From assembly GCA_964410905.1 (NCBI GenBank), contig CAYPIR010000001.1, positions 21,861 through 85,860 on the forward strand: a DNA stretch of 64,000 bases. The letters run 5' to 3'. Position numbers and translations under genes: made by a program. The notes under the pieces are model-generated. The model saw only the letters and a program-made list of their open reading frames with translations, was not told the origin of the DNA and made no database searches. Positions 1 through 33,535 of the stretch are shown piece after piece. This DNA is from an uncultured bacterium. GTDB lineage: Bacteria > Omnitrophota > Omnitrophia > Omnitrophales > Aquincolibacteriaceae. Numbering within the stretch: the first letter of the stretch is position 1; the number at the start of each line of letters is the position of its first letter.

Positions 1-600
1 ATTATAAAAAGCATCATCTATCATAGAAAAACTTTTTGTTACAAATATTGTTTGCTGTAAAAAAAGAAGATCTCCGCCCAAACAAATGCCTTCCGGAAAT
101 CGAATATTGTTATCAAGAACAAGACTCCTACGATATATTGCCGTCCACCAATAAAGATTAAAATAAAATTTATCATTACCGTGTTTGGCTATAATGCTAT
201 TCAATTGAACTGTTTTGGTTTTTCCATAATAGTCCGTCTCTTTCGCGTTGCCTTTGACTATATCCGCATTTGTTTCTATCTTTTTCTCCCAAAGTTTCTC
301 ATAAAAATCCAAATCGACTTCATCATCGTTGTCCACAAAACCCAGATATTCTCCAGTTGCCAAATCTAATCCTTTGTTTCTAGCGACTGATTCTCCGCCG
401 TTTTTTTCATTACAAACCGCTTTAAGATTAGAATATTTTTTTGAATATTCTTGAATAATCTCCCAAGAATCATCCGTAGAAGCATCGTCCACCACGATTA
501 TTTCTATGTCTTTAAGCGTTTGATTACATACGCTGTCGAGACATCTACGCAAGTATAATTCTGCGTTATAAACTGGAATAATTATAGAAACCTTAGGCAC
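1..600 (-). CDS. Family 2 glycosyltransferase (GT2), partial. The gene begins at a GTG at 600 and runs off the window at 1.
   Basis: Reverse-strand translation VPKVSIIIPVYNAELYLRRCLDSVCNQTLKDIEIIVVDDASTDDS...GEYLGFVDNDDEVDLDFYEKL is a canonical GT-A N-terminus with the DxD motif. It overlaps the stop of the preceding GT2 gene by 8 bp. The ORF track does not list it because it is cut by the window edge. Confidence 0.75.
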   Translation of the reverse strand, partial: MPKVSIIIPVYNAELYLRRCLDSVCNQTLKDIEIIVVDDASTDDSWEIIQEYSKKYSNLKAVCNEKNGGESVARNKGLDLATGEYLGFVDNDDEVDLDFYEKLWEKKIETNADIVKGNAKETDYYGKTKTVQLNSIIAKHGNDKFYFNLYWWTAIYRRSLVLDNNIRFPEGICLGGDLLFLQQTIFVTKSFSMIDDAFYN

Positions 601-2266
601 TAGCTACCAACCTCTTCTTGAGAATTGAAAAAAGTTCAATTTTAGTCATCGGCTTAAAACCCTCTTTAAAACCCACAGTGGAACAAGTTCCCGCAAATAA
701 GTTTCCTTTATACTTTTTATCCAAATATTCCTTGGATTGCCAATATGTTCTAGGCAATCTAAGAGTAAATCCTGCATCTGAACAATGGCAACAATCCATA
801 ACAACAATTCGAGATTCAATGCCATGCTTGATGTGGGCGGATATGCAAAAATCTTCAACATAAAGATCCCACTGCAGGCATTCATCGAAACGTAATTTAT
901 ATTTATTTATGAGAGATGAATGAGCAATAAGACATTGACAATCAAATGTATCTACTTTTTCATCGCCTGTAATCACTTTGCCTGCCAGCCTGTTTGTTTC
1001 ACTGCCATCTCTGCATTCTTGAAATATCGTACCTTTCAATTCGTTATAAAAAAAAGTATCTATATATCCAATTTTTGCTCCAACAGGCCCCCACAAAAAT
1101 GTCTTATCAAGGTTTTCTATCTTGGGCAAAACATTTTCGAGAACTTCCCAATCTGAGTGACAGAAGACAAACCACGCGGGCTTAGAATATTCATATTTAT
1201 CTAGAAATTGATTATATCTTTCAGCGACTCCAATGTTTTTAACACTATTATCAAAAGCGTGAAACTCTATCTGTTGTTCATTTGAAATAAATCCATTTTT
1301 GCGCACTAAACGATTATACAAATCAAAATCTTGAACAACGCTAATAAAATAAATACTCTTATTTGCCATCTTACGTCTACCCACTTCGCGACAAAAATTT
1401 ATACACGCCGTCGTTGAAATTTTAAGCATCTCTGCTCGAACAAGATCTTTATAATTCAGCGAGTCATAAAAATCTAAAAGTTGGCTGAGCATAAAACTAG
1501 CCATTTCTTTCCCATGCGTATACATGTAACAAGTAGAAAACCATAAACTTAAAACAAAGGCTTTGGATTTTGTAGATATGGCCGCAGATTCAACCTCATT
1601 AAACAAGATGCGCATACCTTCAATTTTATCGTGGACACTAAAGCTGCTCCGCCTAGCAAGTAAAGCTTCACTCTCAAGCACATAATATTTAGCTTCATCG
1701 CATACTTTAACTGCGTTTGATTTAAGCGCTACCAGAAAAGCAAAAATTGGATCCTCCATATCTCGTAATAGCGGAAAAGTAATATTGGAACTTTTTAATA
1801 AATTTTTTCTATATATTGCACTAGCAAATTCCGCAGAAAAGGTATTTTTATCCACCTTTACTCTGCCATTCAAAAACATATTTTGAACTCCACTTGAAAT
1901 AAAAAAATAGATTCCCTTCACTACATCCGCCGCTGTTTCGACCGCCTTACTATGCAACTTCTCATAAAAATCCAAGTCAATAAAATCGTCTGAATCGACA
2001 AATCCGATATATTCTCCCGCCGCTGCTTCTATCCCAATATTGCGAGCGACTGCGGCGCCTCTATTTTCAGATTGTTCAATTATTTTTATCCTAGAGTCTT
2101 TAGCGGCATATTCTTTCAAAATCGCAAGCGAGCCGTCTGTCGATTTGTCATCTACGCAGATAATCTCAATATCCTTCAACGTCTGGGCGCAAACCGTATC
2201 CAAACATTTCCTGAAATACTGTTCTGGCACGTTATAAACTGGAATAATCACTGAAACTTTAGGCAT
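593..2266 (-). CDS. Two-domain family 2 glycosyltransferase (557 aa).
   Basis: N-terminus MPKVSVIIPVYNVPEQYFRKCLDTVCAQTLKDIEIICVDDKSTDGS...GFVDSDD is the GT2 signature. The C-terminal half looks like a second GT-A-like domain. The flanking sequence is low-GC. Confidence 0.85.
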   Translation of the reverse strand: MPKVSVIIPVYNVPEQYFRKCLDTVCAQTLKDIEIICVDDKSTDGSLAILKEYAAKDSRIKIIEQSENRGAAVARNIGIEAAAGEYIGFVDSDDFIDLDFYEKLHSKAVETAADVVKGIYFFISSGVQNMFLNGRVKVDKNTFSAEFASAIYRKNLLKSSNITFPLLRDMEDPIFAFLVALKSNAVKVCDEAKYYVLESEALLARRSSFSVHDKIEGMRILFNEVESAAISTKSKAFVLSLWFSTCYMYTHGKEMASFMLSQLLDFYDSLNYKDLVRAEMLKISTTACINFCREVGRRKMANKSIYFISVVQDFDLYNRLVRKNGFISNEQQIEFHAFDNSVKNIGVAERYNQFLDKYEYSKPAWFVFCHSDWEVLENVLPKIENLDKTFLWGPVGAKIGYIDTFFYNELKGTIFQECRDGSETNRLAGKVITGDEKVDTFDCQCLIAHSSLINKYKLRFDECLQWDLYVEDFCISAHIKHGIESRIVVMDCCHCSDAGFTLRLPRTYWQSKEYLDKKYKGNLFAGTCSTVGFKEGFKPMTKIELFSILKKRLVASA

Positions 2267-2337: not shown

Positions 2338-3531
2338 TTAATCACCAATTAATCCAAGTGAAAATAACGGTTTTTTCTCTGTTGTATTAAAAGCATAAGA
2401 GTCAGCCAATATTATTTTTCTTCCTGTTTTCACGCCTTTAAACTGACTTCGCCCCTTACCCTTTCCTCCGATTTCAAAAACTGTATCCATATCCGTCAAA
2501 ATGTAATCTGGGGTCTTTTTCCCAGTGGTCGATTTTAAATAATTGATTTTTTTGCCGAAAATTTTGCAACATTGCGCAAAAAAATCCTCTCTCAAGCCGC
2601 CCAAAGCCAAGTCAAAACCATTAAACAATAACCGATACGGCAAACTCAACAAAACTTTAGGCTCTTTTAAAACGTTTGTTCCCGTAGGGAATATCACCTG
2701 AATGACAAACGACTGCTCCAAAAGCAATACATATTGTTCAGCCTTATACTTTGTAATTCCTAAATTTTTCGATATGCTCGAATAATTAATTCCGTCCACA
2801 GCCGATAAGGCAGCAAATTTAACTAGTTTGCTTATCGTATTTAACTCTTCCATAGTTATATTTCTGTTAACTCGCGGAATATCTTTGTAAAGAATGGCGT
2901 TCAAAATGTTATCAAGCAGCGGAATAATGTCCGGTTCGTCTAACGCAAAAGGCATTAATCCGCCTTTTATGTAATCGTAAAAATATTCTCCATACCGCAG
3001 TAACGAAACAGGTAATTTTTTACCCATAAAATCTTCTAAACTGAGCGGCTCAATTACTGCGTCTGTTTTAAATTCAATATATTCACGCAAAGAAAACGGA
3101 TACAGCGGCTTTAATATTAGGCGGCGCGACATATCGTTTTTATATTTCCCCATAGACAGCGCCGTAGAACTTGTAAAGAACACTTTTAAATCTAACAATT
3201 CATAAACACTTTGTATCTCTTTATCAAAATTCGCATACGCATGAACTTCGTCCAGCAAGAAAACTCTTATACCCAGTTTCTCTTTCAAATCCTTTAAGGT
3301 CTCAAACATTTTTCCTTCAAAGGATTCCATCGATATGTAAAAAGAATTTTCAAGCTTTAAAGCAAGTTGTTTTAAAGTTGTAGTTTTTCCCACGCCGCGT
3401 GGTCCAACTATGCCAACAAAGTGCTTACCTTTATCAGACAACAATTCCGCAAAAAGCCTTCTGCTTCTTTTGAATTGCTTAGCACTTTCTTTTGACAGCC
3501 TATCCAATTCTACGAGTTTGCTAATTTCCAT
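2338..3531 (-). CDS. AAA+ superfamily ATPase (COG1373 type, ATPase domain plus DUF4143-like C-terminus).
   Basis: Walker A GIVGPRGVGKTT, Walker B FLLDEVH, and the overall architecture typical of COG1373 ATPases. Confidence 0.75.
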   Translation of the reverse strand: MEISKLVELDRLSKESAKQFKRSRRLFAELLSDKGKHFVGIVGPRGVGKTTTLKQLALKLENSFYISMESFEGKMFETLKDLKEKLGIRVFLLDEVHAYANFDKEIQSVYELLDLKVFFTSSTALSMGKYKNDMSRRLILKPLYPFSLREYIEFKTDAVIEPLSLEDFMGKKLPVSLLRYGEYFYDYIKGGLMPFALDEPDIIPLLDNILNAILYKDIPRVNRNITMEELNTISKLVKFAALSAVDGINYSSISKNLGITKYKAEQYVLLLEQSFVIQVIFPTGTNVLKEPKVLLSLPYRLLFNGFDLALGGLREDFFAQCCKIFGKKINYLKSTTGKKTPDYILTDMDTVFEIGGKGKGRSQFKGVKTGRKIILADSYAFNTTEKKPLFSLGLIGD

Positions 3532-3636: not shown

Positions 3637-4131
3637 CTATTGAGCCCCGTCCTTTCCCATTTCTTCTTCTTTTGCTTTTTTTGCCTTAAGCTTTTCGGCG
3701 TCCGTTTCGAGCGCGCTTTTTTCTGGCGTCCAGCCCGTGTCATCTTTAACTTCATGGATTGGGTCGGCAAGCAGCAATTCTTGCGCGTCGTTATATTCTG
3801 TAACAAACAATGCGAAATTTTCCGCTGTCGCAATTTTGCTATTAATTGCAGCCCCGCCCTTTCCATCTCCGCCGGCAACGATAAGCCCTTTTTCAACCAA
3901 CGCGTCAACAAATAATTTAAAATTTTCATCAATATTAGCAGGGACTCCCGCTATAGACTTTAGAGATGCCAAAACCGCTTCGCTAGATGCTCCTCCGATA
4001 ATGCGCGCAAATACTTCCGTTCCAAGCGGATTCATTCCGTAATAAATGCCCGTTTCTGAATTAATGACGATTGCGATTCCATCCGCAATGTCGGAAAACA
4101 TTTTCGATTCGTTTAAAACATAATTTGCCAT
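3637..4131 (-). CDS. PqqD-family protein (a RiPP recognition element, RRE) with a C-terminal low-complexity extension of about 70 aa.
   Basis: IAIVINSETGIYYGMNPLGTEVFARIIGGASSEAVLASLKSIAGVPANIDENFKLFVDALVEKGLIV matches the PqqD/RRE pattern (DGxxVLxNxxTGxYYxLNxxGxxIW...EIxxxL...FLxxLxxxGLI). The tail is AGGDGKGG...KLKAKKAKEEEMGKDGAQ. The ATG lies 1 nt after the kinase stop, so the two genes are translationally coupled. Confidence 0.7.
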   Translation of the reverse strand: MANYVLNESKMFSDIADGIAIVINSETGIYYGMNPLGTEVFARIIGGASSEAVLASLKSIAGVPANIDENFKLFVDALVEKGLIVAGGDGKGGAAINSKIATAENFALFVTEYNDAQELLLADPIHEVKDDTGWTPEKSALETDAEKLKAKKAKEEEMGKDGAQ

Positions 4132-4132
4132 T

Positions 4133-5221
4133 TTATTTTTTCTCCTTGTTTAGTTTGTTGCAAAACTCTCGCAAGCATTCGACATTGGCATAAATATCGG
4201 GTGAGAGATTTATTTGATAAAAGTTGAAGTCCCTAACAAAATTCATTAATTTGCGAACTGTTGCAATATCAAGCTTGTCGCCCATCTGATTGATAGTTGA
4301 ATGAATAAGCTGCGTAATCGCTCTGCCTTTTTCGCACGACGCAATTGAGGGAGCTTTGTCAGATACAATTTCAGGGAAAATGCACGCTTTGATCGCGTAG
4401 TTTTCTCTGAACTGTTTGTGATAATTAGAAATGCTAAATACGTATTTATCACGCCTCGCGTTGTTGGAAACAAACTTGCCGTCAAACTCATAATAAAGTT
4501 CGTTCCACATTCGCGGGCTCAAAGTAACAATGGAATATATTGGCGAACTGAGCAATTTGCCATTCGTTTGTTTTTCTAAGATAAGATAATCATCTGAAAC
4601 ATATTCAAAGCCTTGCATCATAGACAATACCGCCAAAGTAGATTTGCCGCGTTGTCCGCGCGCGCATACCAAAACTCCGCTGCCGTTTAATCCTACCACC
4701 GCCGCATGAACAAGGTTTGCCGTCGGCGATTTGATGACCTTGTTGAAAAGCTGCACAAAAATATGCCCTTGTTTTATGAACTCTTCCGGGTCAAGATTTT
4801 CAGCGGCATAATAGTATGTATTGTTTTTTGCATCGTAAGCATTAACAAAACCTGTCGTTGGAAAAACAGAAATGTTAGAGCCGTCATCGCCTTTAATGTC
4901 GACATCAATCCAATCTTGATGTAAGACTAACTTTTCAATTCTCGCGCGCATTTTGCCGTGCGAATCAAGCAAGGATTCTGACAACTGTTTTATTTTTGTT
5001 TCTTTCCAAATAACAAGCGTCGCGTCATAGCAATCCGAGTTTGATTTCAATGTAAAGGCGAGTTGTTTTTCAACAAGAGGCGTCCACTCTTTATGAAAAC
5101 ATTCAATTCGCAATGTCTTAGAACCTAATCGCACAAACCGTATCCATTCGCGCGTGTTTGTTTGGCGAATATTGCTATCAAGTTTTTGGACATATGCCGG
5201 CGCATCGCCTTTTATGAACAT
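4133..5221 (-). CDS. HPr-kinase-like serine kinase (HprK C-terminal domain homolog).
   Basis: LVCARGQRGKSTLAVLSMMQGFEYVSDDYLIL parallels the HprK P-loop region [30 protein letters not shown]. Its start overlaps the nucleotidyltransferase stop by 8 nt. Confidence 0.65.
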   Translation of the reverse strand: MFIKGDAPAYVQKLDSNIRQTNTREWIRFVRLGSKTLRIECFHKEWTPLVEKQLAFTLKSNSDCYDATLVIWKETKIKQLSESLLDSHGKMRARIEKLVLHQDWIDVDIKGDDGSNISVFPTTGFVNAYDAKNNTYYYAAENLDPEEFIKQGHIFVQLFNKVIKSPTANLVHAAVVGLNGSGVLVCARGQRGKSTLAVLSMMQGFEYVSDDYLILEKQTNGKLLSSPIYSIVTLSPRMWNELYYEFDGKFVSNNARRDKYVFSISNYHKQFRENYAIKACIFPEIVSDKAPSIASCEKGRAITQLIHSTINQMGDKLDIATVRKLMNFVRDFNFYQINLSPDIYANVECLREFCNKLNKEKK

Positions 5222-6216
5222 TTTCGCTGCTCCCGCATTGAATTAAATCCCTCAGCCATTTTTAAAAACAGCGCTATTAACTGATCGCTTTTGCCAATTG
5301 TTTTAAGAAATCTGTGATAAGGCTTATCTTTTAACCAATTTTTCATTACTTCAAAATTTTTAATCGCATTTTTCAGCTTTAATTTTTTGCAGCGCCATTT
5401 CACATCATAGACATAAAATCTGTAAAAAACCAAACGGTTCCTATAATTTGCTGCGGATTTTTTTAGCTTTTTATTGTGGAGAAATAAATCGGGCAAGAGA
5501 TTGGGCGATATGCGATTTAAAAGTTTTGCGGCAAAAAACAATGTCGCTTCGCAAGATGCCTTTTGGGCATTTTGAAAAACTCTTTTCCAATCAAAATTAG
5601 GATTAGTTTCGAGCAAATATTTAATGTCAAAAAGAGCAAACAAAACTCCGCCTAGGGTTGTTTTGTAATGCAAATTTCGGCTTATGTTGGTCAGCGCGAC
5701 AAATACAAAATCCTCAGGGGTAGGCACAAACGCTCTCGCGCCGAAAACATCTTGCAAAGTTGCCCGCGAAAAAAAGTCTCTCATTAAACTTTTGTCATAA
5801 TCAGGGACATCAAAATCAATAAAACGATGTATATCAACCGTTCCTTCGTCCGTTCCTTTTGGATGTAAGTCCGCCGAGTAGGCATTAAATTCCGCGACCG
5901 TATAGCCGAGATTTTTTGCTATCTCAAGCGACTTTCTATAATCTTCTTCGCGTACCAAAATATCTATGTCGCCCATTGCTCTGGGTAATTCCGGTCTTAT
6001 ATATTTCATCGCGCCGCCTTTTAAAATCATTGGAATAATTCCGTTTTGGTTAAGGGCGCGGACGACTTTGCCAAAATGCGCGATAAGTTTGAGGTTGGCA
6101 AAACGATGAAATTCCAGAACTCCTTTTAAACGCGGATAAATTAGGTCGGGCACGTCAAAATTAGGACGGGATTTTATTGTATACGAGAGAAGTAAAATTT
6201 TTCTGCCATCCGCCAA
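5212..6216 (-). CDS. Nucleotidyltransferase-family protein (polymerase-beta-like fold, PF14907-like). The start is uncertain. The listed start is a TTG, and the frame stays open upstream through the (CAAG)n tract to 6432.
   Basis: Motif LKGGAMKYIRPELPRAMGDIDILV (G[GS]...DxD). The in-frame upstream 72 codons (…KQDTNRLSFLKEDKVFWAEEAFYQEIVSQKDQKLIDLAFREESTQKTLDDFLIDFDIE) look protein-like and contain no ATG, GTG or TTG. Confidence 0.65.
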   Translation of the reverse strand: MADGRKILLLSYTIKSRPNFDVPDLIYPRLKGVLEFHRFANLKLIAHFGKVVRALNQNGIIPMILKGGAMKYIRPELPRAMGDIDILVREEDYRKSLEIAKNLGYTVAEFNAYSADLHPKGTDEGTVDIHRFIDFDVPDYDKSLMRDFFSRATLQDVFGARAFVPTPEDFVFVALTNISRNLHYKTTLGGVLFALFDIKYLLETNPNFDWKRVFQNAQKASCEATLFFAAKLLNRISPNLLPDLFLHNKKLKKSAANYRNRLVFYRFYVYDVKWRCKKLKLKNAIKNFEVMKNWLKDKPYHRFLKTIGKSDQLIALFLKMAEGFNSMREQRKCS

Positions 6217-6383
6217 TTCGATATCAAAATCGATGAGAAAATCATCTAGTGTTTTTTGCGTGGATTCTTCGCGGAAAGCAAGATCGATAAGTTTTTGGTC
6301 TTTTTGCGAAACAATTTCTTGATAAAACGCTTCTTCCGCCCAAAAGACTTTGTCTTCTTTTAAAAAACTTAATCGATTAGTAT

Positions 6384-6424
<41 letters not shown>

Positions 6425-6491
6425 AGACATTCTTAAACTCGCGGTTTTGCATTTTTTAAAAATTAGAAAAATAATTTTCTGTCCATTTTTT

Positions 6492-7520
6492 CTATTTCGT
6501 TAAGAGTTCGTTAACTTTATTCATTACCGCGAACGCGTCGGCGACATAAAGCACATCGGCTTTACCTTGCGCCCAGCCGCAATTGGCGTCTGTATTAACG
6601 GCGCGACGTTCGTTAATGAAACGCCAACCGACAACATGCGGTTCCTCACCGTGACAACAAGTCGCAAGCCCTTTTGGATGTCTGGGCGTAGACCCCGTTT
6701 GCCCGACTTGATTCATGTGCCCAATAAAAGAAAGAACCGCCTCGCCTTCAGCTCCAAGGTCGACAAGCGATTTACTGCTTCCAAGAGACGCTTTTGTATT
6801 TTTGAGAAAATCTAAAATATGTTTTTCGGCATCTTTCGAATGCGTCTGGCCATCGGCTTGTTTTTTTGTCCATCCCGCACCCGCAACAAATAAAAGTTCC
6901 GCGTCAGGACGAATTGTCTGCGCGTCTGCTGGCGGAGCCTGAACACCAACCGATTTGGTTCGTTTGTCTGCGTCTGTTAAAGCAACTGTTACTGCCTCAA
7001 CCGCCGCGGAACCAGCCGTGCCATTAAATGCTTGAAACACTCCCGAATCAACCGCCAAAATCCAAGGACGCGCCGCGCGAGAAAGTGTCGCAACCATTCG
7101 CTGACGGTAATACCAACGTTGGATATTGAGTTTTCCGTCCTGAATAGAAATTCCGCTTATATGCGTATCAATTGCTCCGTTTAATCGAAACGAAAGTCCC
7201 GGCAACGCACGCGCAAAACGGCTTGTTGAAGGCGCGATTATGATTGCCGCGCCTGATGTCTTTGCTATTGCTTCAAGAGCCTTAACATCTGAGGCATAGC
7301 GTGAATCCGCGAAATCGGCGCCCGAAACGCCATAAATCTTAGTGGCTCCCGCTCCGGCAATTTGGTCGGCCGCAGATTTAACGTCAGCGCCAATCAAGCC
7401 TATAGAAAGTTCCGCGTTTAAATCTTTTGTAATTTGCCGCGCTCCCGATAAAACCTCAAGCGCGATTTTGGGAAGGCTTCCATTTGAATCCGTATGTGCT
7501 AAATAAAGAATTTTTTCCAT
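6492..7520 (-). CDS. etfA: Electron transfer flavoprotein alpha subunit.
   Basis: The 342 aa product has Etf-alpha N- and C-terminal domains (…PSTSRFARALPG…; FAD-binding C-terminus). It sits next to etfB. Confidence 0.9.
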   Translation of the reverse strand: MEKILYLAHTDSNGSLPKIALEVLSGARQITKDLNAELSIGLIGADVKSAADQIAGAGATKIYGVSGADFADSRYASDVKALEAIAKTSGAAIIIAPSTSRFARALPGLSFRLNGAIDTHISGISIQDGKLNIQRWYYRQRMVATLSRAARPWILAVDSGVFQAFNGTAGSAAVEAVTVALTDADKRTKSVGVQAPPADAQTIRPDAELLFVAGAGWTKKQADGQTHSKDAEKHILDFLKNTKASLGSSKSLVDLGAEGEAVLSFIGHMNQVGQTGSTPRHPKGLATCCHGEEPHVVGWRFINERRAVNTDANCGWAQGKADVLYVADAFAVMNKVNELLTK

Positions 7521-7532
7521 TTTCTCTCTCCC

Positions 7533-8342
7533 TTAACCTTTAATCCATGTAACGATTTCTTTAGCGATTTCGTCAACGGACGTGTCTTTTACAATTCGAG
7601 TTTGGCGCTGCTGCTTTGGAAGCTCGACAGACGCAAATTGTATTTTGTCCGTCTTAAGTCCGGCGGGCGCGGCCTTCTGCAGCGCGGGCATAATTCCGCG
7701 CATATTCGCCATTCCCACTTGAGGGTTATTCGGCGGCTCAGGTAAATTTCCCGTCGCCCAGCCAATCGCCGCGGGCGCGCCGACGCAAGAGGAAACCTGA
7801 TATTTTCCACCCTCGATTCGTTCAAGAATTTTAAAAGAACCGTCTGCTTGAACTGTAAGTTCATCAACAGACAAAAACACATCGGTAATTCCAAGATGCT
7901 CCGCGATAAGTTGAATTGTTGTTCCTGAATCGCGGGAAGCCGAAGAACAGCCGCCGAACACAAGTGTTTTTGTTTTATCAAATCCCGGCAGTTTAGAAAT
8001 AGTGCCGGCAAGCGCAGCCGCGACTTCGGAGGAGTCCGTAAATCCGCTGGCAGAACCGTCAATCGCCACAAGTTCAAACGGAACTTTTTGCGCGATAGTC
8101 ATCATCAACTGCTGAAGTTTTGCTTTAGGTCCAAGGCTCAAAAGAGTAACCTTGCTACCCGGAAATAGCTTCGCTAAGTTTGCCGCTTCAAAAAGCGAAT
8201 GCCCCGCCCAAGGGTCAAGAACCGAAGGCAGCATCATTTCATTTCTAAGCGCATGACCTGTCGACCCTTGAATTGGCTCAAGTGTTTGAAGTGGATCCGG
8301 AACCAAACTTCCGCAAACTATAATATTAAAAACATTACTCAT
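7533..8342 (-). CDS. etfB: Electron transfer flavoprotein beta subunit.
   Basis: The 269 aa product (MSNVFNIIVCGSLVPDP… Etf-beta fold) lies immediately upstream of etfA. There is a strong SD (AAGGGAGGAAGT) before its ATG. Confidence 0.9.
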   Translation of the reverse strand: MSNVFNIIVCGSLVPDPLQTLEPIQGSTGHALRNEMMLPSVLDPWAGHSLFEAANLAKLFPGSKVTLLSLGPKAKLQQLMMTIAQKVPFELVAIDGSASGFTDSSEVAAALAGTISKLPGFDKTKTLVFGGCSSASRDSGTTIQLIAEHLGITDVFLSVDELTVQADGSFKILERIEGGKYQVSSCVGAPAAIGWATGNLPEPPNNPQVGMANMRGIMPALQKAAPAGLKTDKIQFASVELPKQQRQTRIVKDTSVDEIAKEIVTWIKG

Positions 8343-8406
8343 ACTTCCTCCCTTTTTATTGATTACTTTTCATTTGCCTTTAGCTAGTAGTTATAACGCC
8401 GCTATG

Positions 8407-10260
8407 TTAATTAACATTTGAATGCAGTCCGCCGGAACCAGCGCGGAAATCCACGTTCGTCAAATCACTCCCGCGTTCACGTTCGCATGAGCAATTCCAA
8501 AGACATGCCGCGCAATGAATACATTTTTCACGGTCAAAAAGCGGAACTCCGCCATCGGAGTTTGCCGTTATGGCTTGCCCTGAGCACATCTCAATACAAA
8601 TTTTTGTTTTACATTTTTTGCATTTTTCAGAATCTAAAAACACAACGTGATCGGCAAAACCGTCGGCGGCTTGAACTTTTCCGCCTAGTAAGAGCGCGTC
8701 CTGATGCGACAAGAGCAATTTTCCATCGTATTGAATTTTAGGCCAACCTGCCAAATCCATCAAATCATCGTGAACGGATGTATTGGTTTCAGCCGCCTTT
8801 TTGCGCGCCTCTTCAATTTTTTCCGGCGCGATTTTGCCTTTGTAATAATCTTCAATGGAAGGAACGCGTTCAGAAACAGTTTTTAATTTCACGGGGATGT
8901 TAAGAAAGCCTTTTGTAAAACCAGAAAGCCCCATTCCAATCATTCCAAGTTCAAAACAAGCGCTAAATCCATCGCGCGCTTTTTCCGCCAACTTGCCGTC
9001 TTTTTGAATCCAGCTCTCGCGGCGGGTTTTGAGATATGTCGCCTCAAGATTTTCTTTTGTCGTCGGCTTCCCTTCTTTTAAAAGTTGAATATATCCTTCG
9101 GCAAGCTGCGTCCCCGTTGTCCATGCCTCATCAACGCCAGAACCTTTTAACATATTTGTGCTACCTGAGCCTTCGCCGATGCGCGCAAAACCGTCGCCTA
9201 CAATAAATGGCTCGCCGCGAATCCCCGCTTCTTGCAAACTCTTCGCGCCCCAGGATTTTAAAGCCGCGCCTTGCAAATGTTTCCACAAAACAGGATGCTG
9301 CATCCAGTGCTGAAAATAGCGATATGCCGTGCGGACAGGGTTATCAAGCCAAGACGGAATAAAAATTCCAAGCGACGCGACGCGATCAGGATATACATAA
9401 AGAAAACCAAAAATCTCGGGTTCCGGATAGCCGAATGTATGAATTACAGTCCCGGGCTGAAGCGTTGTGTTTTCCGGCAAATCAATTACCGCTTTCATGC
9501 CTAGCGCCCATTCTCGTTGATGATTTCCTTCAGGCAATCCAAATGTATTGTCTAATTTTTGCCCGACCGGACCGTATGGACCGTCGCCTACAACAGTAAA
9601 AGGCGCGTTAATATTCATACCCGGAGAAAACGATCCCGTAGGATTTCCATTTTTCTCAACTCCTTGATCAGCAAGTCTAACCCCCGCTACGCGATTAGAA
9701 TCAAAAAGAGGTTCTTTTACGGGCATTCCCGGCCAAATTTGGACAAGTCCGGACCCCATCAAATTGGAACCAACCCATTGCGTAAACTGTCCCATGGATA
9801 AAATCCAACCACCATGCTTTGCCATAAAGGGAGGAATAAAAGGAAGTTTAAACGAATGGTCTTTAAACCAAGGAAGAATTCCGCCAAGAATTCGCAAAGT
9901 TCCATCTACTATTTTAAGAAGCCAAGAACGGCGGCTTGCGCCGACTGGGTCAAGCAGATAATAGACTTCTTCGTTCTTTACGGGAGTCGCGAGCGGAATT
10001 TGCGCTAACTCTTCAGAAGACAACGATTGTTTAATGCCCTTTGCTTCTGTAACTATTCCCGAAACACCAAAACCAATATCATCGGCGCGTTCATAACAAA
10101 TTACTTGAAGAGGCATTCCTGGCGCAACCTTACTTTGAAAATGTTCAGCGGTGGGTTCTTTTTGAATTTCTTGAGTTAACTTGTGAAGAAATCCCGCGGT
10201 AGCCGGTCCAAAACCAACACAAACAACATCAACGTCAATTTTTTGTCGTTCAACTGTCAT
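8407..10260 (-). CDS. Electron-transfer-flavoprotein:quinone oxidoreductase (FixC-like flavoprotein fused to a FixX-like 4Fe-4S ferredoxin).
   Basis: N-terminal FAD GxGxxG motif (VVCVGFGPATAG). C-terminal ferredoxin cysteines CKKCKTKICIEMCS…CIHCAACLWNCS. Confidence 0.85.
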   Translation of the reverse strand: MTVERQKIDVDVVCVGFGPATAGFLHKLTQEIQKEPTAEHFQSKVAPGMPLQVICYERADDIGFGVSGIVTEAKGIKQSLSSEELAQIPLATPVKNEEVYYLLDPVGASRRSWLLKIVDGTLRILGGILPWFKDHSFKLPFIPPFMAKHGGWILSMGQFTQWVGSNLMGSGLVQIWPGMPVKEPLFDSNRVAGVRLADQGVEKNGNPTGSFSPGMNINAPFTVVGDGPYGPVGQKLDNTFGLPEGNHQREWALGMKAVIDLPENTTLQPGTVIHTFGYPEPEIFGFLYVYPDRVASLGIFIPSWLDNPVRTAYRYFQHWMQHPVLWKHLQGAALKSWGAKSLQEAGIRGEPFIVGDGFARIGEGSGSTNMLKGSGVDEAWTTGTQLAEGYIQLLKEGKPTTKENLEATYLKTRRESWIQKDGKLAEKARDGFSACFELGMIGMGLSGFTKGFLNIPVKLKTVSERVPSIEDYYKGKIAPEKIEEARKKAAETNTSVHDDLMDLAGWPKIQYDGKLLLSHQDALLLGGKVQAADGFADHVVFLDSEKCKKCKTKICIEMCSGQAITANSDGGVPLFDREKCIHCAACLWNCSCERERGSDLTNVDFRAGSGGLHSNVN

Positions 10261-10369
10261 TTTTACCCCTTATGGTAAGAGTGTTTTTAAAAACAAATTG
10301 GATTCCGCAATAAAACAATTTGCAAAATGTCGCCCCTGTAAAATCAATAATTTTACAAGAAAAATTCGG

Positions 10370-10421
10370 CAGAGATTAACAAACGATGCCGCGAGAATAC
10401 GCGGAGGCTTGATAATCTCTG
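10370..10421 (-). terminator. Probable intrinsic terminator downstream of the acyl-CoA dehydrogenase gene.
   Basis: Nested hairpin cagagatta…ccgcg agaatac gcgg…taatctctg, followed on the minus strand by CCGAAUUUUUCUUG. Confidence 0.5.
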
Positions 10422-10488
10422 TCGAATTTTTTATTCATCTAACTAACTTTCAAACAAAAACATCAGAAATGGCTATTAGCAAACCATC

Positions 10489-12582
10489 CTATAACGGATA
10501 ATCCAACGCTTCAGGGATCATAACATTTGCAACAGACTCCGCGGCACGATCTTTTGAGAAACGAAGTCCGACAAGACTCGCTTCAGTCTTCGCTCGAAGT
10601 TCCGCGAATGCTTTGAGTTCAGCGTCTTTAGTAATATCTGTTCCAGCCGGCAAATATCCATAAATAAGATCAGCGCAAATTTTGCCGACCTCGCCAACGG
10701 CACGAGCCGCCTGAACACCGCTCAAATCTGAATAGAAATTAACAAAACCCTCAAGCCCTTCAGCAAGAGTAGGATTCTCCGGGCCCTTTGCTTCAAGTTC
10801 CAAAGTGTCCAAAATTAACTGACGCGTTCCAAGCAGCCACGCGATTGCATCAGTCAGCGGGAACATAACGCCCTGACGCGCTCCGCCATAAAGAGTCTTT
10901 CCGTTAGCGTCTTTATGCGACTGAAGATATTCAAATGACAATAGCCAAAGATCTATCGCGCTGGCAAGAGCAATCGCTCCGGTTTCCGGTTTGCTGCCGC
11001 CTATTTTTCGCAGGTCATTCGCCCAGCCTTTAAACTGCGCTAGGAAAATATCATTCGTCATCGTGCGGCTTAATTGCAAACGCTGCACGCATTCAGGACC
11101 TTCGTATGTTGCCTCAAGTTGCGCGTCCGACCACTTTTGAGTTAAAAACCCCGGGCAGTCTTCCGTGATGCCGTAACCGCCTACAAGACTGACGGCTTCG
11201 CGCATCATTGTTGCGCCGTATCCTGTATTCCAGAGTTTCCCAGCCGGACAATACACGTCAGCCAAGGACTCCCAGACAAGATACTGCGTCAAAAGATCGT
11301 TTTTGAGTTCTTCAAAACGCTTGGCATCGCGTTCGGCTTCTGGTTTTGCCAAAAGTTCGATATATTCCAACGCCTTTTTACGCGGTTCAGCAAGCGCTTT
11401 CGTTTGCGCTCTCACGCCTTTAATCCCTTGTTTTTCAAAGAGCTCATCTTTTTGGCGTTCCAAAACGTCAAACATGTCAAAAATTCTCGAACCTTCAAAG
11501 CCGAGCGCGGCACCCGCTTCGCCTGTCGCCCAAACGTCGACAAGTCTATGCGTTGGATCTTCTTTTTGCTGAATGCCCAAGTCGTAGCGGGATGTCCCTT
11601 GTGTTACAGACGCTCCTCCGCGATAACGGGTCCGTTGATAACGGATAACAGGCTCAATCGCCGAAAGAAGTTTCGCGGTAGTCATAATGCCAACCGTTAC
11701 GCGAGTTCTGCGGAACACGGCTTCGATAACTTCGCTATTGTTAAAATTAGGAATAATTACGCCGTCTTTAATTGTGTATCCGCCGATAATGCGGCTTGCA
11801 GGAACACGCAAATTAAAAATCGGGTCGTGTGTGCTGGAAAGCTGGTGAACAAGTTTCAAAGTCGGCGCGCCGCGGTCATAAACTCCCTGGTCGCCTTCTT
11901 CTAAAATAATCATACAACTTGATTTAATACGCGGATCATCGGTGTCTACGGACGCTGTAACAAAATTCGCGTATCCCATATTGGTGATAAAACGGCCGCG
12001 TTTTTCAACCTGCAAAATAGGCTCCTTGCCTTCTTCCCATTCAGCAACGCGAAGTTTTCCCGACAACATACCCGCGTCCACGCCGACATATGGGAGAGGT
12101 TCCGTTAGAGCAAACGAACCGCGATATTTGGGAGCTTCGTTGTTAATTGGAACGCAGCCGCCCTTATATTGTAATTTTTGTTCTTTCGTGCCTTTTTCAT
12201 GAATAGGCTCAAGAGCAAGATTGTTCGCGAGACTTGCCGTCGCCGCGCCCGCGTCAACCCAGCAAAGTTCAAAAGCAATCATGGCAAGAACAAGATTTTT
12301 GGGACCCTCTATGTATCCGCCTTCTTCCGGTTCCATAAACGCGGCTGTAATCCCCGCTTTATCAAACTCTCTTAACATTTCCTGTTTTTCTTTTGTCCAT
12401 TCATGCGTGGCGCGCTGTTTATCAGCAACCATACGGGCAACAACGCTGCGGGCAACCGCGCGAGTTGATTGAATTACCATTTGAAGATCATAACGGTCAG
12501 AAAAACGCCACATAATTTGGCGAACCGCATCGGTAGGAAGAGTGCTCAGCAACGCTCTTTTTTCAGAATTAGTCGTGGTCAT
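10489..12582 (-). CDS. Large (697 aa) acyl-CoA dehydrogenase.
   Basis: ACAD N/M/C domain pattern at about 700 aa, typical of FadE-like long ACADs. It lies directly upstream of the etf/ETF-QO genes. Confidence 0.8.
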   Translation of the reverse strand: MTTTNSEKRALLSTLPTDAVRQIMWRFSDRYDLQMVIQSTRAVARSVVARMVADKQRATHEWTKEKQEMLREFDKAGITAAFMEPEEGGYIEGPKNLVLAMIAFELCWVDAGAATASLANNLALEPIHEKGTKEQKLQYKGGCVPINNEAPKYRGSFALTEPLPYVGVDAGMLSGKLRVAEWEEGKEPILQVEKRGRFITNMGYANFVTASVDTDDPRIKSSCMIILEEGDQGVYDRGAPTLKLVHQLSSTHDPIFNLRVPASRIIGGYTIKDGVIIPNFNNSEVIEAVFRRTRVTVGIMTTAKLLSAIEPVIRYQRTRYRGGASVTQGTSRYDLGIQQKEDPTHRLVDVWATGEAGAALGFEGSRIFDMFDVLERQKDELFEKQGIKGVRAQTKALAEPRKKALEYIELLAKPEAERDAKRFEELKNDLLTQYLVWESLADVYCPAGKLWNTGYGATMMREAVSLVGGYGITEDCPGFLTQKWSDAQLEATYEGPECVQRLQLSRTMTNDIFLAQFKGWANDLRKIGGSKPETGAIALASAIDLWLLSFEYLQSHKDANGKTLYGGARQGVMFPLTDAIAWLLGTRQLILDTLELEAKGPENPTLAEGLEGFVNFYSDLSGVQAARAVGEVGKICADLIYGYLPAGTDITKDAELKAFAELRAKTEASLVGLRFSKDRAAESVANVMIPEALDYPL

Positions 12583-12729: not shown

Positions 12730-13470
12730 TTAAACGTTGTCTATGATTAACTTCAAAATCTCTAAAACATCGTGCTTATGCGCAACCGACAACATTCCAA
12801 ACAGCCTAAAAATTTCAAGAAACACGTCCGCATTGCTGTCATCAATTACAAATTCAGCCTCTTCTTTTTGTTCTGCCGTTCTGCCAATTAGCACAGTGTC
12901 TGTCTTCAGTTTTGTTATTGGGAAACACAAATAAAGCATAGGCATAATCCCAACTGCATACTGCTTTTCTCTTGTAATTATTTCAACGACAATATCAAAA
13001 TCTCCAAATTTATGAACTAGCAATGGATATTCGACACTAGATGTTTCAAAAGTAATTTCATTTAATAGAATTTTAACCGGATTTGTCCGCTTTATTTTGA
13101 GTTCGTTTTCCAAAAGATTAAAATCCTCACCAGCATTAACAAAATTTATCAATTTATTTATTTTTTGCTTATCGATTAAACCGTTCTTCGCTAAGTGAAA
13201 AACATACTCTGAAAGTTCATAAAGAGATTTCCGTTTACTATTCGCGCCAGTAAAAGTTAAGTCTTGCAAAGATGTTGTTTTCTTACCTTTTTCGATATCA
13301 GACAAAATTGCGTCATAACCAATTTGCCATTCGACATACATATCCTGAGAAAATGGCGTTTGACGAGTTGCGACAGAAAAACCATATTCATAAATCATTT
13401 TCCGTCTTTTAATTCTGACTTTGCCATTGGTTGTAACTAGTGGGATTTTAATTTTGTATTGGTAACTCAT
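12730..13470 (-). CDS. Putative Type II restriction endonuclease (no recognisable family), partner of the adjacent methyltransferase.
   Basis: The 246 aa ORF overlaps the methyltransferase stop by 4 bp and shares the same AT-rich (about 30% GC) island. Its role is inferred from context only. Confidence 0.45.
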   Translation of the reverse strand: MSYQYKIKIPLVTTNGKVRIKRRKMIYEYGFSVATRQTPFSQDMYVEWQIGYDAILSDIEKGKKTTSLQDLTFTGANSKRKSLYELSEYVFHLAKNGLIDKQKINKLINFVNAGEDFNLLENELKIKRTNPVKILLNEITFETSSVEYPLLVHKFGDFDIVVEIITREKQYAVGIMPMLYLCFPITKLKTDTVLIGRTAEQKEEAEFVIDDSNADVFLEIFRLFGMLSVAHKHDVLEILKLIIDNV

Positions 13471-14630
13471 AGCAAAATTGTCCGCTTAAATAGCTTGTCA
13501 AAATAAATGTTAACTCTTTGTTTTGATAGTTGAATTTGGGCATCATCTATTTGGCTTGTTCCAAATATATCCGGATGCTTCGCACGCGATAAAATTTCAA
13601 AATCTTTTCTATAGACCTTAAATGCCTCATTATTAATAGGCACGTTTAGATTCCCCATATAGTAAGGCAGTCTTTCAGCATAGTCTTTAAAAATATCAAC
13701 ATATTGATAATATTCAAGTTTGCTAGACTTAACCTGAACAGCATTTGGAATATCTTCCTTAATGAATGTTCTGCTTCGTTTTAGTGCATTGATGTCTCGC
13801 ATAGTATAAAAAAGAAAGCCCTTCCAATTCTGCCTTTTATATCTACTAGGATACTTATCCAAATAGTTATCAATATAATCAAATTGATTTAATGAAAATG
13901 TCAAACCTTCCAGAGTTTTAAAACTCCAAGCCTCAACATCCTTAAAGGTCATTCCATGTCCATCTTTTTTATAAATAGCAATAACTATTGGGAAACCAGT
14001 CATTTTGGAGACTTCAGAAAATTCTTGGCTTGAAAACACCAAAGTATCAAGCAATTTATAATTATTTAAAAATGGTTTGAGGCTATTAAAATTAGTTTTT
14101 TTGATTAAATAGGATAGCGGATGCAAAACCGCAACAAATTCGGGCTTTAATTTATTATAAGCAAGCAAAGACGACAAACCAATGTCTCGCGATTCAATGT
14201 CTTTATCAACAGGATACCTAGCCTCAGTTTTTATATCGCATTTAACATGCGAAGTTTTATCGTTATAAGGCGGATTCCCGACCAAAATAACTTTTGCATA
14301 ATCGCTGATACCATAATTAATTCTATTAACTCGATGCAAAGCATTTTGTTTTAAAAAAGTAATTTCTGGGAAATTAGATTTTGCAGTTTCTAGCGCCATT
14401 AAATCAATATCTGCACCAACACATCTAACTTGGAGAGGCAAATCAACATTAAAAAAAGCTCCATATCCACAGCTTGGTTCTAATAAAACATCACAGCTTT
14501 CAAAAGCATTATATTTGTTTAGCAACTCGTACGTTTTAGAAACAAGTTTTTGCGGTGTATAGAAACTGCCTAAATTTGTCTTATCACTATAACTTAAATG
14601 CCTCGCTGTTTTATCTAATAAATTTTGCAT
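13467..14630 (-). CDS. Gamma-class N6-adenine DNA methyltransferase (TaqI/Eco57I-like).
   Basis: Motif X GSFYTPQ, motif I EPSCGYGAF, and motif IV NPPY in gamma order. Confidence 0.85.
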   Translation of the reverse strand: MQNLLDKTARHLSYSDKTNLGSFYTPQKLVSKTYELLNKYNAFESCDVLLEPSCGYGAFFNVDLPLQVRCVGADIDLMALETAKSNFPEITFLKQNALHRVNRINYGISDYAKVILVGNPPYNDKTSHVKCDIKTEARYPVDKDIESRDIGLSSLLAYNKLKPEFVAVLHPLSYLIKKTNFNSLKPFLNNYKLLDTLVFSSQEFSEVSKMTGFPIVIAIYKKDGHGMTFKDVEAWSFKTLEGLTFSLNQFDYIDNYLDKYPSRYKRQNWKGFLFYTMRDINALKRSRTFIKEDIPNAVQVKSSKLEYYQYVDIFKDYAERLPYYMGNLNVPINNEAFKVYRKDFEILSRAKHPDIFGTSQIDDAQIQLSKQRVNIYFDKLFKRTILL

Positions 14631-20336: not shown

Positions 20337-20337
20337 A

Positions 20338-21345
20338 TTAAGATTTTTTTGTTCCTGAAGATGACGGCTTTGACGGACGAAAAATATTTGCCGAGCTTTG
20401 TTTTTCGGTTTTACGGACAATAGCTATTTTCTCGTCTTCGCTTAACCCCTTCGTTATAATTGTCATGCTTCCATCTGTATCGCCAAGCTCCACAGCAATA
20501 GGCGTTAATTTTTTCTTATCGTTTTTTTGATAAATGGCAAAGGAACTTTCAAACGGCCGTGCGAGTTCTTTAGGCCAATCCATAATAGCTTCCGACGGCG
20601 CGAGTAAAACATCCTTCGCCTCTTTCACAATAAATGTTACATTCGCAGTCATACCGCTCCTAAACGAATCAGGAACTTCTTCAGGCAACACATCAACTTT
20701 ATAAACATTTACATTGTTTTCCAGCGTGCTTTCAAAGGTGATGTGATCTACCTTTCCTTCAAATGTTTCATTACGATACGCATCCAAGCGAATCTCCGCT
20801 CGTTGCCCTATTTTAATTAATGAAAGGTCTGTTTCATCTACTAACCCCTCAACAATCAACCTGTCGGAAACTACCACAACGGCATCCGTAGTCGATACTG
20901 TTTGACCCGGCTCAACGGAACGGACAATAACCATTCCATCAAGCGGCGACAGCAAAGGCGCCGGCTTATACGCTTCTTCCCATCTTTTTAATGTCTCAGG
21001 ACTCTCACCGCGAGCCGCGTCAAGAAGCACCGCGCGCTCGACTGAACTCATATAAGCAAGAATCTGTCCACGATTTACCATCTCGCCTTCTCGGACAAGA
21101 ATATCTTCTATACGTCCTGCTATCGGCGCTTTGACTTCAACGCGGTTGTAAGGTTTAACCGTTCCCGTCGCCGTAACGCTTAGCCACAAATCTCCGCGCG
21201 TAATTTTATCCATTCTTATTAGTTCTAAACCGTCAGACGATTTTCCGCATGAAGAAAATCCTTGCATCGCTCCGATTAAAATTACTATTAAAATTATCCA
21301 TTTCAAAAATCCACGTTTTTTATTTTTTTGATTGTTCATAATCAT
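20338..21345 (-). CDS. macA: Periplasmic adaptor (membrane-fusion, HlyD family) subunit of the efflux pump.
   Basis: Lipobox-like N-terminus (…GFSSCGK) and a coiled-coil/beta-barrel MFP pattern. It lies between the tolC-like gene and macB. Confidence 0.8.
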   Translation of the reverse strand: MIMNNQKNKKRGFLKWIILIVILIGAMQGFSSCGKSSDGLELIRMDKITRGDLWLSVTATGTVKPYNRVEVKAPIAGRIEDILVREGEMVNRGQILAYMSSVERAVLLDAARGESPETLKRWEEAYKPAPLLSPLDGMVIVRSVEPGQTVSTTDAVVVVSDRLIVEGLVDETDLSLIKIGQRAEIRLDAYRNETFEGKVDHITFESTLENNVNVYKVDVLPEEVPDSFRSGMTANVTFIVKEAKDVLLAPSEAIMDWPKELARPFESSFAIYQKNDKKKLTPIAVELGDTDGSMTIITKGLSEDEKIAIVRKTEKQSSANIFRPSKPSSSGTKKS

Positions 21346-26871: not shown

Positions 26872-26948
26872 TGGTCGGGGCGATTGGATTCGAACCAACG
26901 GCCTCTCGGTCCCGAACCGAGCGCACTACCAAGCTGTGCTACGCCCCG
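26872..26948 (-). tRNA. tRNA-Pro (anticodon CGG), with an encoded CCA.
   Basis: Reverse complement CGGGGCGTAGCACAGCTTGGTAGTGCGCTCGGTTCGGGACCGAGAGGCCGTTGGTTCGAATCCAATCGCCCCGACCA. It has a C1:G72 pair, a 7-bp acceptor stem, D-stem GCAC/GTGC, anticodon loop TTCGGGA and T-loop TTCGAAT. Confidence 0.9.
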
Positions 26949-33131: not shown

Positions 33132-33535
33132 AAAAGGAAGGTCTTCTCTATAAGCCGGGTTCTGTTCTTTTATCTCGCGATAAAAGAGACGACCATCTAT
33201 CTAGGACAGTTGTTGCCAATTGTCTCGGTCGGCTTACCCAATAAAGTTAAGAGATTGCTCTCTTTGTAGAAGTGGACGCTTCCGCCAATTTGGCTCTTTA
33301 TCCTGTTTAGCCTTTCTTCACGTAGAGATTGCCGCGTTTCACCCTCTAAGACTTTCGTCCTAAAGACTCGTCTCTGTGGCTCTAATCCGTTCTGAAAATA
33401 TCTTGCGATAAATCCAGAAGATGGGCGTTACCCATTACGATGTCCTATGAAGCCCGGACTTTCCTCCCACAACGGTTTGATGAGACGTTTCTCACCCTTT
33501 CGCTTGTGCGCGATCGTCCGAAAAGACCTTCCCGA
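33132..33535 (-). ncRNA. rnpB: RNase P RNA (bacterial type A).
   Basis: Minus strand contains GGGAGGAAAGUCCGGGCUUCAUAGG (P4 5' strand and CR-I). Near the 3' end ACAGAACCCGGCUUAU matches the P4 3' strand, as in E. coli M1 RNA. P1 pairing is GGAAGGUCUU/AAGACCUUCC. A U-run follows the 3' end. Confidence 0.9.

Follow-up and report, generated by a model that had tools for sequence, protein, structure and literature searches.

The closest described relatives of the system discussed here are tailoring enzymes of lasso peptides, which belong to the peptides that are made by ribosomes and modified after translation (RiPPs). In the biosynthesis of pseudomycoidin the kinase PsmK phosphorylates the C-terminal Ser of the lasso precursor, and PsmN is required for the addition of one or two hexoses to that phosphate (PMC6993621). 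The residue set His-Lys-Asp-Asp is reported to be essential in lasso-tailoring kinases (PMC9266682), and complete lasso clusters with a kinase, a nucleotidyltransferase and a family 2 glycosyltransferase (GT2) are found in rumen Butyrivibrio (PMC7533575). Genes for a nucleotidyltransferase, a kinase and a PqqD-family RiPP recognition element (RRE) also lie side by side in a stretch of 64,000 nucleotides from an uncultured Omnitrophota bacterium (contig CAYPIR010000001.1, positions 21,861 to 85,860), hereafter called the window. This trio had been described as an orphan, stand-alone cassette (the original prediction), while our comparison identifies it as the conserved 5' module of operons that carry glycosyltransferases. 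We tentatively propose, with a probability of roughly 45%, that the trio is the head of a horizontally mobile, repeat-switched operon which builds a glycoconjugate with soluble enzymes. The trio itself is known; what is new is its occurrence in a conserved, cyclase-free glycosyltransferase context, together with a motif in the RRE protein that lies outside Pfam and NCBIfam. Nothing in the literature searched describes this cluster of trio and glycosyltransferases.

Homologous loci were collected from five metagenome neighbourhoods and from a scan of one genome per species, which contributed 80 loci (131 confirmed hits), and open reading frames (ORFs) were called and clustered in 89 loci. The databases hold more than 650 homologues of the kinase, at 50-62% identity, and more than 970 of the PqqD protein. 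The gene order across the loci is nucleotidyltransferase, kinase, PqqD and then glycosyltransferases, with the trio genes present in 80-85 of the 89 loci and one GT2 cluster present in 78, at about 2.5 copies per locus. Accessory clusters encode GT8, DUF4422, GT2-GT1 fusion and Caps_synth proteins, FkbM methyltransferase, HAD hydrolase, radical SAM enzyme, aldo-keto reductase and MptE-like proteins; by sequence inspection only, epimerase-like and transketolase-half-like clusters and, in seven loci, an ABC half-transporter-like cluster were recognised as well. Proteins with at least four predicted membrane segments occur in only 1 of 77 operons, and the operons do not have the composition of an O-antigen or capsule locus dependent on undecaprenyl phosphate, with an initiating transferase, flippase/polymerase or ABC exporter in the operon.

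The glycosyltransferases of the window are encoded, like the trio, on the reverse strand. The first is a two-domain GT2 protein of 557 aa (593..2266; PF00535, 2.5e-39), a member of an ORF cluster (c21) which directly follows the RRE gene in four other loci, where it starts, at the median, 507 nt beyond the start of the RRE gene. By translation, a second GT2 gene begins with GTG at position 600, overlaps the stop of the first by 8 nt and stays open for at least 200 codons until it is cut by the window edge (1..600); it shares 52% identity (E 1e-52) with the N-terminal GT2 domain of its neighbour. For an extension of the window to the left, the only contigs that bear these genes are Logan contigs of 2-3.5 kb, and no record exists of the GT2 product.

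According to the titles of 80 records, 41 loci belong to Gastranaerophilales / Melainabacteria, 15 to Alphaproteobacteria, nine to Desulfovibrionaceae, three to Bacteroidales and two to Spirochaetes, with one each from Planctomycetota and "Heliobacteriaceae" and eight unclassified. Nearly all are from metagenome-assembled genomes or uncultured isolates of gut, rumen and termite samples, and they span at least six phyla. The G+C content of the trio is below that of the upstream flank in 44 of 57 loci; this lower G+C, the identity of 45-64% across phyla and the non-conserved flanks together indicate horizontal spread. In the window the G+C content is 0.34-0.42 across the operon versus 0.47-0.50 in the electron-transfer flavoprotein (ETF) and acyl-CoA dehydrogenase genes to its right. 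No relative was present in the viral contigs searched.

The three genes of the window correspond to co-directional minus-strand ORFs (5212..6216, 4133..5221 and 3637..4131) and are tightly coupled, as had been predicted. The nucleotidyltransferase gene (PF14907, PsmN-like) extends over 5212..6430, and the TTG-initiated ORF 5212..6216 is its in-frame remainder. It is followed by the gene of a P-loop kinase of PEPCK/HprK fold, of the short form with 362 aa and without a fused RRE (4133..5221, from the ORF call and profiles), and by that of the RRE protein, which has the PqqD fold, 164 aa and a conserved C-terminal extension (3637..4131, from PF05402, an AlphaFold2 model and Foldseek). The stop of the nucleotidyltransferase gene overlaps the kinase ATG by 10 nt (ATGTTCATAA) and not by the 8 nt given before, while the 1-nt spacer between the kinase stop and the PqqD start was given correctly. 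The genes of the original prediction are thus real, but their boundaries were in part wrong. The neighbours named there, a COG1373 ATPase and etfA, are found by the Pfam scan as an AAA_14/DUF4143 ATPase and etfA.

A further correction concerns the start of the nucleotidyltransferase, which had been placed at 6216. A (CAAG)10 tetranucleotide repeat of 40 nt, encoding [SKQA]n, is located at 6384..6423 on the reverse strand (Tandem Repeats Finder: period 4, 10.0 copies, 100% matches). The frame of the nucleotidyltransferase ORF remains open upstream of 6216 and through the repeat, until it meets a stop directly ahead of an ATG at 6430. With 10 units this ATG (6430..6428) is one base out of frame and its own frame ends after 17 codons; deletion of one repeat unit joins the ATG to the ORF and gives an intact protein of 405 aa. 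Residues 30-75 of this ON form, from the repeat to the region of 6216, align with the N-termini of 25 full-length homologues. Between the repeat and TTG 6216 there is no start codon, and there is no ribosome-binding site at that TTG. The reading frames of ATG and ORF, the N-terminal homology and the lack of a start or ribosome-binding site downstream suggest that the repeat is an in-gene translational switch and point to ATG 6430 as the true start of the gene. From its 10 copies the switch is predicted to be OFF in this assembly, copy numbers divisible by three (9, 12) being those expected for ON. The earlier claim that the cassette is under a tetranucleotide-repeat switch is in line with this, as the repeat is present and alters the reading frame.

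Simple repeats at the operon start or in glycosyltransferase genes were seen in at least 10 homologous loci overall. In L007, L008, L040, L052 and L081 the nucleotidyltransferase gene has a tract of G10-G15 or T15 immediately upstream, and in L015, L033, L036, L052, L071 and L078 glycosyltransferase genes contain, or are separated by, poly-G or (AG)n tracts. In L052 the G15 tract is flanked by TTTACG and TATAGAAT, which we read as putative promoter hexamers. The use of different repeat types in the same functional position in different lineages argues for selection for switching. The idea of a phase-variable modification, put forward for the window before, therefore gains support from both the frame analysis and the repeats of homologous operons.

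The assignment of the nucleotidyltransferase to PF14907 (NTP_transf_5) was sound: it matches at E 3.1e-26, with 92.9 bits against a cut-off of 31.2, and its pol-beta-type active-site residues KG...DxD...D.H, that is K136-G137, D153, D155, D198 and H200 in the numbering of the ON form, are all at least 95% conserved in 84 homologues. Full-length homologues have a median length of 395 aa. For the kinase the situation is less simple. The match to Pfam PF07475 (Hpr_kinase_C) has 21.3 bits, under the cut-off of 33.3, those to NCBIfam TIGR04355 / TIGR04352 have E 1.5e-7 and about 31 bits versus cut-offs of 200, and TIGR04249 gives 19 bits versus 125; the matches to HprK models span only about 55 residues and are all under the curated cut-offs. 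On the other hand, conservation in 85 homologues is at least 95% for H172, the Walker A residues G192-K193-S194-T195 and D210-D211, and in the fold comparison the kinase matches PEPCK over both domains. With its fold, its Walker A sequence GxxGKS/T and its catalytic His and Asp-Asp the protein belongs to the HprK/P-PEPCK superfamily. Its earlier description as HprK-C-like can therefore be kept on the strength of fold and catalytic residues, although not of the Pfam and NCBIfam scores. When the profile of the family was compared with the paeninodin-type lasso kinase of a Priestia plasmid, hhalign gave a probability of 90.6% over 57 core columns. About half to most of the family consists of long-form kinases of about 490-510 aa (for example P0079, P0114 and L006 10001-11473), whose size of about 500 aa is due to a second PqqD/RRE domain at the C-terminus. 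In P0079 this domain matches PF05402 with E 1.4e-5. As judged by eye, the RRE of the long form keeps the helix-strand extension but is without the tail motif described below.

The third protein is well supported as an RRE, as originally assigned. It scores 28.5 bits against PF05402 (PqqD; cut-off 23.4) and matches TbiB1 in the PDB profile search (E 8.9e-6). In the AlphaFold2 model residues 1-86, with block means of 85-96 in the predicted local distance difference test (pLDDT), form a winged helix with a three-stranded sheet, and the top Foldseek matches of the model are lasso B1-leader complexes with target-normalised TM scores of 0.83-0.84 (TbiB1, 0.83). The protein can thus be classed as an RRE of the B1 type found in lasso clusters.

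The other parts of a lasso cluster are absent, as had been stated. A complete paeninodin-type cluster from the Priestia plasmid was used as positive set in tblastn searches of the 64-kb window and 94 loci; matches were obtained there with its kinase and B1 protein, but none with its cyclase, B2 protease or precursor. Neither did the neighbours of the window operon or of the examined loci include any Asn-synthetase-like cyclase Pfam family. Among the 2,688 intergenic ORFs (15-99 aa, 86 loci) that were clustered, only shadows antisense to GT2 genes and tRNA regions recurred, although very short or highly variable peptides could escape such clustering. The lack of cyclase, B2 protease and precursor is what would be expected if the trio were the remnant of a decayed lasso cluster, left with tailoring genes only and "orphan" in the literal sense. 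Such decay is, however, hard to reconcile with a cyclase-free arrangement that more than 130 species-level genomes share at 50-64% identity, with intact active sites and tightly coupled genes, and with a cyclase or B2 protease in 0 of 94 loci; we regard it as extremely improbable. A secreted glycosylated RiPP, acting as an antimicrobial or a signal and having its precursor gene elsewhere in the genome, would account for the recognition and tailoring proteins of RiPP type and for the ABC half-transporter, similar to lasso exporters, in some loci. Yet precursor, protease and immunity genes are missing, as is the exporter from most loci, the operon crosses phyla without a linked precursor, and phase variation and low G+C fit a surface structure better. 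A product of this kind consequently appears improbable to us.

The best reading, in our analysis, is that the trio would act as a phospho-glycosyl priming module of PsmK/PsmN type which feeds soluble glycosyltransferases. The RRE protein would hold a peptide or protein acceptor, the HprK/PEPCK-fold kinase would phosphorylate a hydroxyl on this acceptor, and the PF14907 enzyme would attach the first sugar to the phosphate. The downstream GT2 enzymes, in relatives together with GT8 and others, would then extend the glycan, and slipped-strand changes in the (CAAG) count would turn translation of the nucleotidyltransferase on or off. Since starts and stops overlap or abut, the switch probably affects the downstream genes as well. 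The original interpretation agrees with this in the domains, the kinship to the pseudomycoidin (psm) enzymes, the missing lasso parts and the phase variation, but not in the orphan status, the low-complexity tail and the paeninodin example.

Several observations weigh against this priming model. The likeness of the kinase to lasso kinases is confined to about 57 core residues, and PsmN activity has not been reconstituted in vitro (PMC11912497). Known HprK-type RiPP kinases target a C-terminal Ser, and nothing comparable is encoded here; in the small-ORF clustering (at least 15 aa, 86 loci) there is no conserved acceptor peptide gene in or near the operon. A putative exporter is found in a minority of loci only (7 loci). 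Variation in repeat length is a prediction from the frame analysis, and the one further contig extending into the repeat (L001) is broken within it.

A more distant form of the system, which bears on the alternatives, came to light through a plasmid search that identified a relative on a plasmid of Crinalium epipsammum PCC 9333, a cyanobacterium available in culture, and led to a whole clade. The Crinalium set consists of a PqqD protein of 154 aa, a PF14907 protein, an "HPr kinase", an FkbM methyltransferase, two GT-A proteins, a second PF14907 protein and an ABC transporter; the HPr kinase and the PqqD protein are 22% and 25% identical to the window proteins, respectively, and the latter ends in ...DLLLLDPIHEVDVEAGWPNAKTA. 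The clade has more than 430 members, from Scytonema, Calothrix, Fortiea, Nostoc, Kamptonema, Geminocystis and others, and all have the C-terminal sequence K[FY]TDME[DE]LL.LDPIHEV...GWP..K. Of these proteins, none reaches an NCBIfam cut-off. In Calothrix PCC 7507 and Geminocystis NIES-3709 the set occurs in shuffled order and is interleaved with GT2 genes and with genes for an OafA-like acyltransferase-SGNH protein, an epimerase and a sulfotransferase-FkbM fusion. In Geminocystis NIES-3709 (L095; 3261-5260, 5373-9157) the set is near Wzm/Wzt(Wzt_C) O-polysaccharide exporter genes, with several transposase genes between.

The main rival to the priming model is a module directed at glycans, in which the glycosyltransferases decorate an envelope glycolipid, such as the core of lipooligosaccharide (LOS) or lipopolysaccharide or an ABC-exported O-polysaccharide. 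The kinase and the nucleotidyltransferase would then phosphorylate or cap the glycan or activate a small substituent, and the RRE-tail protein would be only a scaffold or regulator. Parallels for such activities are capping by WbdD and the choline kinase and cytidylyltransferase of lic1. The distribution is consistent with this proposal, in that 71 of the 72 labelled loci are from diderm lineages and typical Firmicutes are absent despite the gut origin of the samples. The host of the window is itself diderm, as it encodes a MacB-HlyD-OEP (TolC-type) efflux system. Phase variation at the level of both the operon and the single glycosyltransferase is typical of LOS and capsule loci, as established for Haemophilus, Neisseria and Campylobacter, and operons made almost entirely of soluble enzymes resemble LOS outer-core loci. 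The Wzm/Wzt(Wzt_C), OafA-like acyltransferase-SGNH, FkbM methyltransferase and sulfotransferase genes beside the cyanobacterial relatives point in the same direction, as does the two-domain match of the kinase to PEPCK, which is a small-molecule kinase. Against this stands the fact that RRE/PqqD domains are so far known only as peptide binders, while most gut versions of the operon have two of them, one fused to the kinase. Moreover, the His-Lys-Asp-Asp kinases with known substrate act on proteins or peptides, and the PF14907 enzyme has the pol-beta nucleotidyltransferase fold and not that of sugar-1-phosphate nucleotidyltransferases. We consider a glycan-directed function possible but on balance doubtful.

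A third possibility concerns the RRE protein itself. Its tail comprises residues 87-164 (about 78 aa) and was formerly taken as a low-complexity segment; instead, it is a conserved domain with an invariant motif. In the AlphaFold2 monomer residues 87-122 are confident, with block means of 92-93 dropping to about 72 at 111-120, and include a helix at 98-103, a strand at 110-113 and a second helix at 116-122, while residues 125-138 have pLDDT values below 50 and are disordered. The motif, EYNDAQELLLADPIHEVKDDTGWTPEK, covers residues 112-138 (3718..3798, reverse strand), and according to column conservation in 81, 71 and 187 sequences residues 115-138 (DAQELLLADPIHEVK..GW.P) are invariant or nearly so. 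Its core D..[DE]LL..DPIHEV...GW is common to the family of the window and the cyanobacterial clade. The tail has no match in Pfam even at E 10; for the motif, neither Pfam nor NCBIfam contains a matching model, and the literature searched makes no mention of it. When 1.84 billion representative proteins were searched exhaustively with the motif by phmmer, 28 matches were obtained, nearly all of them fragments of the same family, the remainder being ankyrin and FN3-like noise and one further protein, P0261. In an analysis of mutual information, the division of the family into two subclades dominated the values between columns of the tail and those of the RRE, and there was no signal of contacts.

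Two further observations on the motif may be recorded. P0261 is a metagenomic protein of 110 aa which carries the variant LLVDPIHDVKDETGWNP without a PqqD domain and is the sole free-standing case among the 1.84 billion representatives. The motif LLLADPIHEVKDDTGWTPE looks like the ankyrin-repeat consensus LLLDAGADVNVKDDSGWTPLH (compare P0270), which is probably a coincidence.

It is tempting to speculate that the RRE-tail protein is a self-priming carrier, with its disordered C-terminal segment phosphorylated or nucleotidylylated and the glycan built on it; the original prediction had likewise offered the tail as a possible modified core. The protein is the sole non-enzyme inherited with the operon, through at least six phyla and two deep clades, which speaks against an acceptor that is specific to the host and has its gene in another place. 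Disorder of the motif in the monomer model is what one would expect of a substrate or a docking peptide, and most kinases have an RRE of their own which could bind the tail. The tail subtype also tracks the kinase form: tails of the subtype ...GWTPEKDSIGYTKEET (IGY) pair with the long form and those ending ...SAL[NE][PT]D with the short form, with 37 long/IGY, 30 short/other and 10 mixed cases, but plain co-inheritance may explain this link. The tail is, however, without an invariant Ser, Thr or Tyr, and the cyanobacterial tails end in GWPNAK... In the 81-187 aligned sequences and the cyanobacterial tails there is no position with Ser/Thr throughout; at position 135, 115 of 186 sequences have T/S and 55 have Q, and in 20 sequences neither 132 nor 135 is S/T. 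Conservation of an entire motif without variation is, in addition, seen more typically in docking sites than in core peptides. In our estimation a carrier role of the tail is unlikely, and so, to the same degree, is its fullest version, a phase-variable, mobile, protein-primed phosphoglycan system with an ancient cyanobacterial sister, in which the peptide D..ELL..DPIHEV...GW of the RRE-fold protein would be the carrier used by the kinase, the PsmN-like nucleotidyltransferase and a varying array of soluble glycosyltransferases. Such a system, if it exists, would add a new class to the bacterial glycoconjugates and put the RiPP recognition fold to a new use.

In the window a further gene intervenes between the RRE gene and the first GT2 gene. 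It encodes an AAA_14/DUF4143 ATPase (2338..3531, reverse strand; PF13173, 6.1e-19) and is a candidate defence gene (PADLOC PDC-S01, 2.8e-27). It forms a singleton ORF cluster, absent from all other loci, and is a lineage-specific insertion after the RRE gene. PADLOC matched only this inserted ATPase and gave no match for the trio. The spacer between the RRE gene and the ATPase gene contains a 35-nt inverted repeat (3545-3579 / 3585-3619) with 80% complementarity and a 5-nt loop. A scan for promoters and terminators gave no informative signal.

To the right of the operon, a stretch of 16 kb carries genes for ETF, ETF:quinone oxidoreductase (ETF-QO) and acyl-CoA dehydrogenase as well as for a restriction enzyme, a branching enzyme and efflux pumps. 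Immediately upstream of the operon is a reverse-strand block (6492..12582) for EtfA, EtfB-like and ETF-QO-like proteins and an acyl-CoA dehydrogenase of 697 aa, in which the EtfB-like ORF (7533..8342) has no Pfam match at 1e-5. The region 12730..14630 (reverse strand), a patch of low G+C (0.32-0.37), contains an R.Pab1-type restriction endonuclease gene (PF09522, 6.8e-43) and, overlapping it, an ORF of 387 aa without Pfam match, possibly its methyltransferase. A MacB-type ABC pump, an HlyD-family adaptor and an OEP (TolC-like) protein are encoded at 18375..22675 (reverse strand). The only Rfam matches in the window are an RNase P RNA of class A at 33135..33529 and tRNAs at 33559..33632 and 26875..26948, all on the reverse strand.

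A peculiarity of the homologous operons is the C-terminal peptide LFGF[IL]P[IL], which is present in 1-3 copies on unrelated accessory enzymes. It was seen on 15 of 22 aldo-keto reductases, 4 of 9 transketolase-C-like proteins, reductase-radical SAM fusions and two GT2 proteins (examples are L004 16190-17209, L007 18173-19342, L008 11020-13074 and L079 16761-17867), and not in the visible part of the window operon. This peptide may serve these enzymes in common as a membrane anchor or as a docking tag, and might even be a ligand of the RRE domains.

The trio has so far been discussed only as an addition to lasso-peptide clusters, and it is found here as the fixed core of a much larger, cyclase-free family, always together with glycosyltransferases. 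This family is common in uncultured gut, rumen and termite bacteria, including Gastranaerophilales, Desulfovibrio, gut Alphaproteobacteria, Bacteroidales, spirochaetes and Planctomycetota, and the cultured cyanobacteria among its members could be used for experiments. That repeat switches have arisen repeatedly at the operon start suggests that the product is exposed to host immunity or phages. The invariant tail motif of the RRE protein is a concrete handle for finding the acceptor. A practical consequence is that genome-mining tools which flag PqqD with HPr kinase as "lasso-like" will mislabel these loci.

In comparison with known systems, the switching and the downstream genes are similar to those of phase-variable surface loci. 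Haemophilus lic1, lic2 and lgtC and the capsule and flagellin glycosylation loci of Campylobacter carry a tetranucleotide or homopolymer repeat either in the promoter or within the 5' coding part of their glycan genes, encode soluble enzymes of GT2 and GT8 type and are low in G+C. To our knowledge, such LOS and capsule loci differ in having no RRE, no HprK-fold kinase and no PF14907 enzyme. The pairing of an HprK-related kinase with a PqqD protein is shared with the best NCBIfam matches, HprK_rel_A/PqqD_rel_X, HprK_rel_B and SynChlorMet ScmC/ScmD, but the window proteins reach about 31 versus 200 and 27 versus 100 bits. Scores this far under the cut-offs, also for the cyanobacteria, mark a separate family outside the curated models. 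The paeninodin-type clusters (PadeK/ThcoK) have in common with the window the kinase core with His-Lys-Asp-Asp (PMC9266682), beyond which the similarity of the kinase stops; they contain complete lasso machinery and no nucleotidyltransferase, so that the statement that the trio is known from paeninodin as well as from pseudomycoidin holds for the latter only. The rumen Butyrivibrio clusters resemble the window in their HPr-type kinase, nucleotidyltransferase, PqqD protein, family 2 glycosyltransferases (GT2/EpsH) and gut-type habitat (PMC7533575), but these are Firmicutes clusters with LasA, LasB, LasC and LasD, whereas the present family is without all four and occurs in diderm lineages. Most similar is the psm cluster of Bacillus pseudomycoides, with the HprK-superfamily Asp-Asp kinase PsmK, the DxD nucleotidyltransferase PsmN and the PqqD-fold protein PsmB1 (PMC6993621), the membership of PsmN in PF14907 being assumed from its description as an uncharacterised nucleotidyltransferase. 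The psm cluster has a cyclase, a B2 protease, a Ser-ending precursor and an exporter, none of which is present here, while the operon of the window combines an RRE that bears a conserved tail, a kinase with a PEPCK-like N-terminal domain and several dedicated glycosyltransferases downstream.

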